DNA of 56,522 nucleotides from Escherichia phage PDP46. The notes under the pieces are model-generated. The model searched no databases. It saw only the letters and a program-made list of their open reading frames with translations, and had not been told where the DNA came from. Within the stretch, counting starts at the first letter, position 1. Each line of letters opens with the position of its first letter. The DNA is taken from sequence record PQ783785; one strand, 5' to 3'. The position numbers and the translations under genes were made by a program. Of this stretch, positions 7,456-8,756 are shown one piece after another.

Positions 7456-7482
7456 GCCCCGGACAGTTCCGGGGCTTTTTTC
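7456..7482 (+). terminator. Intrinsic terminator after terL (GCCCCGGA-CAGT-TCCGGGGC then TTTTTT)
   Basis: 8-bp GC stem and T-run. Confidence 0.7.
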
Positions 7483-7756
7483 AACGTCTGAAAGATGAAA
7501 GAACAGCGAGGCTAACAGAACCTAAACCGAATATGACGGCGTATGTTAACTGATGTTGAAGTTTCACAAAACCGTAATAATCGCTTTGTAATTCCACGAT
7601 GTCAAAAGCAATTGAAAAACTGGTTACCAGCAACATGATTGAAAGAACACGAATCAGAGCAACTGCTAACCCTATCACCCCTTGTTCTTTTTTCTCAGTT
7701 GTAATAACGACAACAATCATTAACAGAAGTGAGAAAGCAATATACATGTATTCCAT
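7481..7756 (-). CDS. Membrane protein (about 3 TMDs)
   Basis: 91-aa hydrophobic ORF, last gene of a leftward cassette between terL and portal. Confidence 0.45.
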   Translation of the reverse strand: MEYMYIAFSLLLMIVVVITTEKKEQGVIGLAVALIRVLSIMLLVTSFSIAFDIVELQSDYYGFVKLQHQLTYAVIFGLGSVSLAVLSSFRR

Positions 7757-7760
7757 AATT

Positions 7761-7923
7761 ATTAGTCCCGATAAACTTCAGCACACCCGTAAATTTTACC
7801 AGGGTTGTAAGCCTGTTCAGCTTGTAACACACCCTGACACTGTTCGAACGTCATGATACGTTCTGTCACAGGTTCAATAGTCACACCATGCAGAACAAGT
7901 ACCAGTACATAACCAATTAACAT
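7761..7923 (-). CDS. Small hydrophobic-N-terminus protein, not in ORF track (approximate)
   Basis: Hand translation MLIGYVLVLVLHGVTIEP... about 53 codons. Confidence 0.2.
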
Positions 7924-8252
7924 TCTCTTAGAGTCTCCGTCCAGTCCAGACCGTGTAGGTTTACAGTTGCAAGCCTCACTTTTGGGATACCGTAACGACG
8001 ATTATCCCAAAATTCATCACAGAGTTCTGGTTCACTAAAATACCCGTAAACAACCCCGTAACTATTCGTGGCTATATAGTCAATATCTTCAGGAACAGTT
8101 AAAGACAAACCAAAATAATTGACCGTTTTATACACGTCTGCACTAGCCAGTGTCATTTTACAATCTGGTGCTTCTTCATGGATATCCCACGATTTACCAC
8201 AATGCGAACAATGATATTCATCATTACAGCGAATAGCGTTTACGTGATTCAT
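7917..8252 (-). CDS. Hypothetical protein with Cys/His motif (CSHCGKSW..C)
   Basis: 111-aa ORF in leftward cassette. Confidence 0.45.
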   Translation of the reverse strand: MNHVNAIRCNDEYHCSHCGKSWDIHEEAPDCKMTLASADVYKTVNYFGLSLTVPEDIDYIATNSYGVVYGYFSEPELCDEFWDNRRYGIPKVRLATVNLHGLDWTETLREC

Positions 8253-8269
8253 GATTATTCTCCTGTTAT

Positions 8270-8470
8270 TCAGTTGACTAAGTAATAAATGTTATCACGG
8301 GCCAATTCATCAGCGTCTTCCTGACATTCGATTGAGGTGTTATCGTCACGCCATTCTTTAGCACATTCACGCGCTTGTTTACGACGTTTTTTCTTACTGT
8401 TACGAAGGTCTAAAAATATTTTTAATTCTTTATCATAAGCTCTTACCATACGTTTCATTGTACTTTTCAT
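8270..8470 (-). CDS. Hypothetical protein
   Basis: 66-aa ORF in leftward cassette. Confidence 0.4.
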   Translation of the reverse strand: MKSTMKRMVRAYDKELKIFLDLRNSKKKRRKQARECAKEWRDDNTSIECQEDADELARDNIYYLVN

Positions 8471-8473
8471 AAT

Positions 8474-8686
8474 TCAAAACCCCTTACTTTTAGCAATTTG
8501 TTGTGCACGTTTTTTAGTGTGACCAGCAGCAATTAAGCGTTTTTCTACTTGGTCATTATAAGTTTTTAAAAGTTCGTCGCGCATTACTCGACATGTTTCA
8601 CACGGGCATTTCATAACAGGTTCAGTACAAGCATTAGGATCTAATGACGCAATACCAAAACCACTACCGTTGCCGTACATACTCAC
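8474..8686 (-). CDS. Hypothetical protein
   Basis: 70-aa ORF; AGGAG RBS; first gene after promoter copy 4. Confidence 0.4.
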   Translation of the reverse strand: MSMYGNGSGFGIASLDPNACTEPVMKCPCETCRVMRDELLKTYNDQVEKRLIAAGHTKKRAQQIAKSKGF

Positions 8687-8708
8687 TACTCCTGTTCAGT
8701 TGATGACT

Positions 8709-8756
8709 AAAGCATAATCGCACGTTTGCAATTCGTCAAGAATTATTTTAACACCG
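8709..8756 (-). promoter_or_regulatory. Conserved early promoter copy 4, TTGCAA subtype (-35 TTGACG, -10 TATGCT)
   Basis: Motif GCAATTCGTCAAGAATTATTTTAACAC; -35 at ~8734-8739. Confidence 0.6.

Follow-up and report, generated by a model that had tools for sequence, protein, structure and literature searches.

A conserved yet plastic leftward small-gene operon, probably accessory, between terL and portal of a 9NA-like Escherichia coli phage

The terL-portal locus

The window analyzed here is the whole 56,522-nucleotide stretch of DNA from Escherichia phage PDP46 (PQ783785), a 9NA-like virulent siphophage (Nonanavirus/Sashavirus) with ~96% identity to PJ16, AVIO78A and BDX09P1. Between terL and portal it carries five tightly packed minus-strand ORFs (7481-8680), encoding proteins of 68, 66, 111, 53 and 91 aa (orfE, orfD, orfC, orfB and orfA, respectively; Table 1). 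orfE and orfD are separated by 3 nt and orfD and orfC by 17 nt, orfC and orfB overlap by 7 nt (orfC stop and orfB start), and orfB and orfA are 5 nt apart; Shine-Dalgarno-like sequences lie upstream of orfE, orfD, orfC and orfA. An earlier sequence-only reading had placed five small leftward genes here, and all five are genuine genes rather than chance ORFs, as shown by homologs of each in other phages and by the patterns of codon differences in orfA and orfC. The identical five-gene order is found in an independent metagenome contig (ENA), and the exact 68-aa OrfE protein is present in a public collection. For orfE, listed as 8474-8686, the GTG start at 8686 is unlikely and the ATG at 8680, with AGGAG 8 nt upstream, is the better start. 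Rfam and tRNA scans of the entire window returned no RNA genes.

Table 1. Features of the leftward cassette and its borders (positions in the window)
Feature	Position	Strand	Description
Cassette promoter	8711..8749	-	Copy 4 of a 13-copy family, sigma-70-type (sequence prediction)
UP-like A/T-rich tract	8749-8740	-	AAAATAATTC
-35 hexamer	8739-8734	-	TTGACG, followed by a 17-nt spacer
-10 hexamer	8716-8711	-	TATGCT
orfE	8474..8680	-	68 aa, soluble, basic, pI 9.0
Conserved joint, orfE 3' end/orfD start	8466..8542		77 bp, shared with relatives
orfD	8270..8470	-	66 aa, highly charged, pI 9.2, no hydrophobic segment
orfC	7917..8252	-	111 aa, 6 Cys and 5 His
orfB	7762..7923	-	53 aa, hydrophobic N-terminus, conserved Cys C29 and C47
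orfA	7481..7756	-	91 aa, integral membrane protein, three hydrophobic spans
Hairpin with T6	7456..7481	+	GCCCCGGA-CAGT-TCCGGGGC and T6, intrinsic terminator

The terL-portal site was compared in 10 relatives, comprising E. coli, Salmonella and Klebsiella phages. In each of the 10 a leftward cassette occupies the site and the same promoter motif stands at the homologous place, so that terL and portal are never neighbors. The two flanking genes are 80-97% identical among the relatives, while the promoter-proximal cassette genes differ. At 1678 bp, the terL-portal gap of the window is the shortest compared, the range being 2203-4279 bp in the eight relatives for which both genes were annotated in the fetched stretch. 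Homologous cassettes in Nonanavirus and Sashavirus (9NA gp16-gp21, Sasha gp11-16, Solent 025-029, PJ16 019-025 and AVIO78A 021-027) share the site, the strand, the promoter motif and a converging plus-strand terminator, and encode orthologs of OrfA, OrfB and OrfC with 59-100% identity; the annotations of their products go no further than hypothetical, membrane or periplasmic protein. In the window, by contrast, there are only two promoter-proximal genes, orfE is a fusion and 1.9 kb has been deleted on the rightward side. The 9NA virion proteins were reportedly identified in a J Virol paper of 2019 on 9NA-like genomics. The terL-portal cassette is not mentioned in the papers on AVIO78A and STGO-35-1.

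Promoter and terminator

The cassette was proposed to have its own promoter, and one is indeed predicted upstream of orfE. The motif AAAATAATTCTTGACGAATTGCAAA at 8725-8749(-) is the fourth of 13 matches in the window, where 0.01 would be expected by chance, and every copy of the family has a near-perfect -35 hexamer with TAnnnT 17-18 nt downstream. PJ16 and BDX09P1 have the same hexamers and spacing at the cassette, with 9 of the 17 spacer bases different. Other copies are predicted to drive the dUTPase gene, the DNA-polymerase operon and the head genes (17523+); as the family also precedes the head-gene block, it is not by itself a mark of the early class. A promoter-like site inside orfA (7605-7577) was rejected, being no commoner than in shuffled sequences, and TGTACAGAACWRTTAC, upstream of terL, has two exact copies only, which is not significant.

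The far end of the cassette is marked by a hairpin (7456-7475, with T6 following) that folds with ~-20 kcal/mol on either strand. The U-tract belongs to the plus strand only: read on the minus strand, the hairpin is followed by AAAGUCAAUC, without a U-tract, and in the relatives this terminator is annotated on the plus strand only. No canonical leftward-strand terminator was found for the cassette; a weak 5-bp hairpin inside orfA (7631-7619) was rejected as expected by chance, judging by small hairpins in shuffled sequences. Of the earlier suggestion that the cassette ends at the terL terminator, the hairpin stands but not its assignment to terL. In the relatives it closes a separate rightward unit, and it lies directly after terL in the window because ~1.9 kb has been deleted, with a GGGAT 5-bp microhomology at the joint. 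The deletion took out the true terL terminator. The cassette and the rightward unit run toward each other and meet at the hairpin.

OrfC and the anti-defense hypothesis

The Cys/His protein noted in the sequence-only reading is OrfC, besides which OrfE has an invariant Cys4 cluster (C-x6-C-x-C-x2-C). OrfC consists of a zinc-ribbon-like module (residues 1-34) and a ~75-aa beta domain (residues 36-111). Four residues of the module (C15, C18, H25 and C31) are invariant; at C9, 2 of 23 sequences have Tyr instead. Its match to Pfam Zn_ribbon_6 (E 2.2e-4, 21.6 bits) falls below the 25-bit cut-off, and the strands placed at residues 6-9, 12-15 and 21-23 by AlphaFold have a pLDDT of only 58-71. Word-indexed searches with OrfC and OrfA found close relatives only, while a full HMMER profile search revealed the beta domain to be a large uncharacterized family that has neither a Pfam entry nor a solved fold and is spread widely through virulent enterobacterial phages in single, tandem and 8-repeat forms.

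Mean pairwise identity among 23 OrfC homologs is 98% over residues 1-34, 38% over residues 35-94 and 85% over residues 95-111. Over the first 34 codons, 20% of codon pairs differ synonymously only and 2.7% non-synonymously. Synonymous change is thus normal, which indicates that the constraint acts on the protein, and a DNA-level cause of the invariant N-terminus was rejected on this ground. Intact or not, orfC is present in all 10 relatives (frameshifted in 9NA). Its alleles in close relatives fall into discrete types, with type I in the window and type II in PJ16.

The sharp drop in identity after an N-terminus with normal synonymous change, the discrete alleles and the frequency of the beta domain in virulent phages would all suit an anti-defense protein or host-factor binder engaged in an arms race, a role that other cassette proteins might share. 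The function of the invariant zinc module would then be constant, and target specificity would lie in the exchangeable beta domain. We nevertheless regard an anti-defense role as unlikely, and this division of labor between the two domains as doubtful. OrfC is unlike any characterized protein, and its model gave no match at E < 1 in a Foldseek search of the PDB and only uncharacterized phage proteins in a structure search of BFVD. It had no match in PADLOC, which covers defense rather than anti-defense proteins, and the allele swaps could be neutral mosaicism. In addition, the relative KarinMuster was markedly sensitive to restriction-modification and Old defense systems in the BASEL study (PMC11990801).

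Gene turnover at the promoter-proximal end and the origin of the cassette

Synteny with the 10 relatives separates a constant from a variable part. orfB and orfC are found in all of them, while the presence of orfD and orfE varies, and the promoter-proximal part holds two to five different genes depending on the relative. Only orfD and orfE show gain and loss of the accessory type. orfD, a member of phrog_8758 (function unknown), occurs among the relatives only in PJ16, Solent, Sasha and Sergei (95-97% identity), that is, in three of the 10 loci compared, with Sergei as an additional carrier. Homologs with 48-70% identity are found in lambdoid mEp phages, amid a run of small ORFs. The orfD DNA is 98.5% identical to that of Solent, as against ~86% for the flanks; together with the lambdoid homologs, this indicates that single genes move horizontally at this site.

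orfE has been formed by fusion across a 36-bp repeat. The last 22 aa of the protein are the end of another gene, 48 aa long, that relatives carry, and its N-terminal part is found in 2 of the 10 relatives' loci. The repeat, CACGTTTTTTAGTGTGACCAGCAGCAATTAAGCGTTT, lies within the 77-bp joint, which, with 9NA as the sole exception, is kept in every relative from E. coli, Salmonella and Klebsiella, and PJ16 has ~715 bp extra across it.

The sequence-only reading had likened the cassette to a moron. It does resemble the lambdoid morons (PMC3594210) in that its genes are small, have their own predicted promoter, lie amid virion-assembly genes and are lower in G+C (38.6%) than the neighboring terL (47.1%) and portal (46.2%) and the whole window (43.7%), and the horizontal signal in orfD points the same way. 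In the strict sense, however, a moron is a foreign transcription unit, complete in itself and gained recently, and such an origin of the cassette is quite unlikely. Far from being an 'obvious addition' missing from relatives, the cassette and its promoter occur in every one of them, the promoter belongs to the phage's own family, and an own minus-strand terminator is lacking. A second leftward small-gene block of the same genome (14272-17222) is equally poor in G+C (36.7%), so the low G+C of the cassette looks like a property of this class of genes rather than a foreign signature. Finally, 9NA-type phages are virulent and without lysogeny genes (PMC4153490), and the authors of the AVIO78A paper likewise found no such genes; expression from a repressed prophage, as in lambdoid morons, is therefore not applicable.

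The cassette appears instead to be a conserved yet plastic accessory operon. Its conservation goes only half way toward making it a core structural block: three of the genes are conserved across the clade, as core genes would be, but no structural family was matched by any of the five proteins in Pfam, PHROGs and NCBIfam scans. When the same databases and PADLOC were searched with the five proteins and their two neighbors, the matches were sub-threshold or to families of unknown function only.

Envelope-type proteins and their possible roles

One or two membrane proteins had been expected in the cassette; OrfA is a clear membrane protein, and OrfB is of the signal or anchor type. orfB is limited to the 9NA-like clade, in which its presence extends to the Klebsiella phages, and its ortholog in Solent is annotated as 'putative periplasmic protein, signal peptide'. 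OrfA (phrog_15669) has orthologs with 97.8% identity in Sasha and Solent, annotated on the basis of TMHMM with three TMDs in an N-out, C-in topology. Compared with 9NA, 29 of its codons differ synonymously only and 12 non-synonymously. The gene is present in 8 of the 10 relatives (the E. coli and Salmonella members) and missing from the Klebsiella relatives, while homologs with 44-53% identity form the last gene of a replication-gene operon in Seuratvirus and Eiauvirus. Together with converging gp14/gp15-like genes, orfA makes up a module kept in three siphovirus genera.

Class I holins such as lambda S have three spans with the N-terminus out and the C-terminus in. The size and topology of OrfA are consistent with this class, and OrfB is small and envelope-directed, but a role of OrfA, possibly with OrfB, as holin, antiholin or other lysis-timing component is very unlikely. 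A complete lysis cassette lies 28 kb from orfA (35951-37553), encoding a 1-TMD protein, an endolysin (GH108 and PG_binding_3, E 8e-25), a 2-TMD protein and an i-spanin gene in which an Rz1-like o-spanin is embedded, and Solent has the same lysis set; OrfA is therefore not needed as a holin. Moreover, OrfA has no charged C-terminal tail (it ends in ...LSSFRR), its Met1/Met4 pair is not conserved (the 9NA protein begins MEYLIAA), and its homologs in other genera close replication operons.

A role of OrfA, OrfB and OrfC as accessory factors in packaging or head assembly, which would account for their retention between terL and portal, is extremely unlikely. Their clade-wide position among head genes and the very strong purifying selection on the OrfC N-terminus would be in keeping with such a role, but the strand and promoter type differ from those of the structural genes, 9NA is a viable laboratory phage with a frameshifted orfC, the Klebsiella relatives lack orfA, which adjoins replication genes in Seuratvirus and Eiauvirus, a membrane and periplasmic topology fits poorly, and structural-family matches are lacking.

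An accessory operon with host-directed products

The region 7456-8749 is best explained, with a probability of roughly 60%, as one leftward polycistronic accessory operon with non-structural, host-directed products in a virulent 9NA-like E. coli siphophage. In this operon the host sigma-70 RNA polymerase would start at the cassette's copy of the 13-copy promoter family, probably from the beginning of infection, and would transcribe five translationally coupled small genes toward the hairpin shared with the converging rightward unit. A promoter-distal layer, comprising orfC and orfB in every relative and orfA in the E. coli/Salmonella members, Seuratvirus and Eiauvirus, is conserved, while in the promoter-proximal layer orfD and orfE are swapped, lost or fused through recombination at short shared sequences.

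The products would most likely target the host cell during infection, with OrfA and OrfB acting at the inner membrane or periplasm, e.g. in envelope modification or in the exclusion of superinfecting DNA, and OrfC, OrfD and OrfE acting as small cytoplasmic binders. The role in host takeover or exclusion suggested by the sequence-only reading is plausible; as no functional homolog was found for any of the five proteins, it is based on their size, topology and position. The orfC frameshift in 9NA and the absence of orfA from Klebsiella relatives suggest that in the laboratory lytic growth can do without at least some cassette genes, while the clade-wide conservation of orfB and orfC would also be compatible with a role in the cycle of the phage itself. 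An outside chance is given to a composite picture, with OrfC as a polymorphic phage effector and, separately, OrfA and the converging gp14/gp15-like genes as a membrane unit; the variable domain of OrfC may set specificity for a host or defense target.

HK97 gp15 excludes superinfecting phage, the kind of role that the sequence-only reading had proposed for the membrane proteins of the cassette, and the T4 superinfection-exclusion proteins Imm and Sp are small, early, inner-membrane or periplasm-facing products of a virulent coliphage. The cassette proteins may be compared with Imm and Sp in being small, membrane- or periplasm-facing and from a virulent coliphage, but they differ in having no sequence similarity to them (Pfam, E <= 1), and the three-span topology of OrfA is different. 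HK97 gp15 is an inner-membrane protein encoded by gene 15, a lambdoid moron (Cumby et al. 2012, PMC3594210). In its layout the cassette also resembles the hyperplastic regions of T4-type phages (PeSLs; PMC2839356, PMC4122927), in which groups of variable small ORFs separate conserved core genes, the units start with a repeated promoter motif and the gene complement shifts through short-repeat recombination. Unlike the PeSL regions, it belongs to another phage lineage with another motif, no stem-loop partner is seen at the promoter, and the mapped joints (the 36-bp coding repeat and the GGGAT microhomology) are not at promoter copies.

Small-gene islands among the virion genes of 9NA-type phages are already known, and close relatives carry annotated orthologs; the cassette is one further example, of little importance alone. 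The window nevertheless offers a clean and compact natural variant, with five genes in a minimal gap, for deletion and expression studies, and the site illustrates how gene content changes, by fusion at a 36-bp repeat and by deletion at a microhomology. It also draws attention to two conserved uncharacterized families, the three-span OrfA protein and the OrfC beta domain, both frequent among the virulent enterobacterial phages that serve in therapy and biocontrol.

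Genome setting and the five genes

The window belongs to a Nonanavirus/Sashavirus (9NA-like) siphophage, since the 5-kb stretch round the cassette is 96% identical to vB_EcoS_PJ16, vB_EcoS_AVIO78A and Sashavirus BDX09P1 and 87-88% identical to the Salmonella phages Sergei, Solent and 9NA, while in terL and portal identity to Klebsiella phages such as Carvaje is ~80%. Phage 9NA is virulent (PMC4153490). The five small minus-strand genes between terL and portal that were described from the sequence alone are all found, including a predicted membrane protein (orfA), a protein with a hydrophobic N-terminus (orfB) and a Cys/His protein (orfC). 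Their junctions are tight (E/D, 3-nt gap; D/C, 17-nt gap; C/B, 7-nt overlap, ATGTTAA; B/A, 5-nt gap) and therefore fit one translationally coupled polycistron. The start of orfE needs correction: AGGAG lies 8 nt upstream of ATG 8680, but only 2 nt from GTG 8686, and the more suitable spacing makes a 68-aa product likely; an identical 68-aa protein occurs in the public protein collection.

The ORFs are genes rather than chance reading frames, because orfA, orfB, orfC and orfD (not orfE) match PHROG families, orfA codon differences from 9NA are mostly silent (29 synonymous-only, 12 non-synonymous), both orfB cysteines are retained in Klebsiella phages despite 55% identity, and purifying selection is clear in orfC. 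None of the five proteins has an above-threshold curated family in Pfam, NCBIfam or PADLOC. On the other side of terL, the Ala-rich protein, which is driven by promoter copy 3 (5289-), has no Pfam match. The motif TGTACAGAAC(A/T)(G/A)TTAC occurs exactly twice in the window, at 5348-5363(+) and 25576-25591(+), upstream of terL and of the gene at 25627, a count that is not significant.

Features of the window discussed in the text
Feature	Position	Strand	Basis or description
Ala-rich protein	4590-5240	-	long Ala-rich low-complexity C-terminal half (AARAAYAADAADAAAYAAD…)
terL	5380-7143	+	ORF listing
gp14-homologue C-terminal remnant	7160-7270	+	phrog_7239 positions 49-83 of 85
gp15 homologue	7283-7447	+	comparison with relatives
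Hairpin	7456-7475	+ (T6 tract)	fold ~-20 kcal/mol on either strand
orfA	7481-7756	-	91 aa, three hydrophobic spans
orfB	7762-7923	-	53 aa, hydrophobic N-terminus
orfC	7917-8252	-	111 aa, 6 Cys and 5 His
orfC beta domain	7917-8144	-	~75 aa, residues 36-111; also in homologues P0048-P0194
orfD	8270-8470	-	66 aa
orfE	8474-8686 as listed	-	ORF listing; likely start ATG 8680
Cassette promoter	8725-8749	-	fourth of 13 copies; pattern match; TTGACG and TATGCT hexamers
portal	8822-10177	+	ORF listing
Leftward promoter copies	1464, 3571, 5289, 8725, 10948, 12090, 17208, 25534, 44403, 44466	-	13-copy family
Rightward promoter copies	17523, 49772, 51999	+	13-copy family
Lysis cassette	35951-37553	+	1-TMD protein, GH108 and PG_binding_3 endolysin, 2-TMD protein, spanins

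Promoters

The cassette does have its own predicted promoter, as proposed. The pattern AAAATAATTCTTGANGNNTTGCAAA, counted over the window with ≤3 mismatches, gives 13 matches against 0.01 expected; in all 13 copies AAAATA(A/G)TTC precedes TTGAC(G/A), and TAnnnT follows 17-18 nt downstream. The family consensus is AAAATAATTCTTGAC(G/A)nATT(A/G)CA, with conservation reaching into the spacer (GATTACA), a stretch to which a regulator could bind. The cassette promoters of PJ16 and BDX09P1 keep the window's upstream tract, -10 and spacing, but differ from it in the final base of the -35 and at 9 of 17 positions in the spacer; the core motif is found at the homologous site in all ten relatives, Klebsiella phages included. 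Further copies of this family stand before the head-gene block (17523+), the dUTPase gene (12090-), the DNA-polymerase operon (44403-/44466-) and more of the leftward blocks of small genes. The family is thus the phage's general sigma-70-type promoter and not a foreign one, and alone it sets no temporal class. The two copies ahead of the replication operon form a tandem pair.

A candidate second, rightward promoter class lies back-to-back with the cassette promoter. The extended -10-like motif TGATATAAY, preceded by CAC/ACG, occurs at 8774-8782(+), 13284-13292(+) and 35899-35907(+), where it lies ~40-50 nt ahead of, respectively, portal, the gene for head morphogenesis and the first gene for lysis; the window has 4 occurrences of the motif, with 1.27 expected. 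The motif is kept ahead of portal in all ten relatives, and also precedes the Solent head-morphogenesis and holin genes.

The distal hairpin and a terL-side deletion

A strong hairpin is present at the distal end of the cassette, but its reading as the terL terminator needs correction. The T6 tract is on the plus strand only, the minus-strand hairpin being followed by AAAGUCAAUC, and relatives' annotation treats the equivalent hairpin as a plus-strand terminator. Nor is it the terL terminator of the group: in PJ16 and AVIO78A a separate terL hairpin (GGCGGGA-TTAT-TCCCGCC, with a T-rich run after it) directly follows the gene. Past it lie a promoter-family copy that points rightward and four or five genes in that direction, the last of them ending at the 7456-type hairpin. 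Compared with every relative, the window carries a ~1.9-kb deletion at 7144-7161, with GGGAT microhomology (7152-7161), that took the 3' arm of the terL hairpin, the rightward promoter copy and three and a half genes. One lost gene is annotated in relatives as 'lateral tail fiber chaperone' or 'tail needle knob'. The retained gp15 (54 aa) has a Cys-rich N-terminus and is Phe-rich throughout.

Conservation and exchange among relatives

The five proteins were compared by tblastn with the terL-portal regions of ten relatives. As the proposed synteny test, this gave a divided answer: orfB (55-96% identity) and orfC (59-97%, frameshifted in 9NA) are conserved in all ten, while orfD and the N-terminal part of orfE are patchy, the former at three of ten loci (PJ16, Solent and Sasha; Sergei also has it) and the latter only in PJ16 and BDX09P1. 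orfA is present in the eight E. coli and Salmonella phages (87-100%) and missing from both Klebsiella phages. Near the promoter, gene content varies between relatives, from two to five small genes that are unrelated to one another, with conserved DNA joints at 8263-8270, 8466-8542 and from ~8690 onward and unrelated sequence in between. The DNA of orfD is 98.5% identical to that of Solent against ~86% in the flanks, which indicates recent exchange; its other homologues (48-70%) come from a small number of further E. coli phages, lambdoid mEp phages among them. In mEp044 the gene is part of a long series of small ORFs that follows rap and a Holliday-junction resolvase.

orfE is composite, joining the Cys4 N-terminal part of PJ16_025 to the C-terminal tail (…KRLIAAGHTKKRAQQIAKSKGF) of PJ16_023, a 48-aa gene present in most relatives, since ~715 bp between two copies of a 36-bp repeat in PJ16 are missing from the window; the event may have run in either direction. 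Elsewhere in the orfE cluster the C-terminal tail is either this one or a different one (at least four alternatives among the homologues P0195-P0203), and in some the heptad GNGSGFG near the N-terminus (8650-8680(-)) is duplicated. The five-gene arrangement is natural and not an assembly artefact, because an ENA metagenome contig encodes proteins of 68/66/109/53/91 aa in the same order, between portal and the complete rightward set.

Homologues of orfB are limited to the 9NA-like clade. Full-length orfA homologues (44-53% identity) extend to Seuratvirus (KurtStettler), Edwardsiella phage eiAU, Hafnia phage yong3 and others. In the two gene contexts examined, the homologue is the final gene of an operon with either DNA polymerase or a helicase and methylases. 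In both contexts they converge on homologues of the 9NA products gp15 and gp14 (3498-4309 in stretch L012; 3001-3551 in L013), so the junction gp14-gp15 →← orfA is conserved across three genera, being kept in 9NA-like phages, KurtStettler and eiAU while surrounding genes differ. The orfA orthologues of Sasha and Solent (97.8% identical) are annotated '3 TMDs, N out, C in', and their orfB orthologue 'signal peptide, putative periplasmic protein'. That orfA is a holin is unlikely, given the complete lysis cassette elsewhere in the window, and likewise in Solent. In the window's lysis cassette the Rz1-like o-spanin is embedded in the i-spanin gene, and the endolysin is of another type than the one annotated in Solent (D-Ala-D-Ala carboxypeptidase domain).

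The orfC beta domain

orfC consists of two modules, with identity across 23 homologues of 98% in residues 1-34, 38% in 35-94 and 85% in 95-111. The constraint on residues 1-34 acts on protein rather than DNA, because these codons show synonymous differences at the same rate as elsewhere (20% of codon pairs) but few non-synonymous ones (2.7%). In 9NA a frameshift divides the homologue (4919-5249(-) of its stretch, L002): gp18 as annotated covers only the zinc-ribbon-like part (N-terminal 58 aa), and the beta domain goes on, unannotated, in another frame.

A profile search of 1.84 billion representatives (E ≤ 0.001) matched 620 proteins (representative clusters), most of 75-90 aa and matching only residues ~35-110; some carry two tandem copies and a few five to eight. 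The motif is YFG..L.VP…IATD..G.VY.Y…P…W…V.L.G.DW..TL, and the domain, which has no Pfam family, is often met in Queuovirinae, Phapecoctavirus, T4-like and jumbo phages. By tblastn it is present in 228 phage records, all annotated hypothetical among the matches listed. No structure in PDB resembles the AlphaFold model (mean pLDDT 80, >90 over most of the beta domain) at E < 1, and its BFVD neighbours are solely uncharacterised proteins from many virulent phages. That orfC is a polymorphic effector built on this uncharacterised, very widespread phage domain is an unlikely, speculative reading.

Nature of the cassette

The sequence-only reading is partly supported. Its description of the locus stands once two points are corrected, namely where orfE starts and which strand and unit the terminator belongs to; a moron in the strict sense is not supported. 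Morons are recognized by a promoter and a terminator of their own, a deviant G+C, expression from a prophage and being plainly an addition when related phages are compared (PMC3594210); of these the cassette clearly shows only the promoter. Its G+C is 38.6% against 43.7% for the window, but this is not distinctive because another leftward block is at 36.7%. A closer analogy is offered by T4-type hyperplastic regions, in which variable small genes lie among core genes and each unit begins with a repeated promoter motif (PMC2839356, PMC4122927), although the mapped joints of the cassette are not at promoter copies.

The gene set, promoter family, conservation layers and recombination joints are direct observations, beside which a working scheme may be set. 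On its face the cassette promoter needs no phage factor, so host sigma-70 polymerase would start near 8704 on the minus strand upon DNA entry, ribosomes would translate the five genes as a coupled series, and leftward transcription would enter the shared hairpin without a canonical stop. orfA and orfB may act at the inner membrane or periplasm, and orfC, orfD and orfE would be small cytoplasmic proteins. The products are probably accessory and non-structural; an essential assembly role is disfavoured because orfC is frameshifted in 9NA, orfA is missing from the Klebsiella relatives and promoter-proximal genes are freely exchanged. The cassette is an accessory operon of a 9NA-like phage, conserved across the clade yet plastic.
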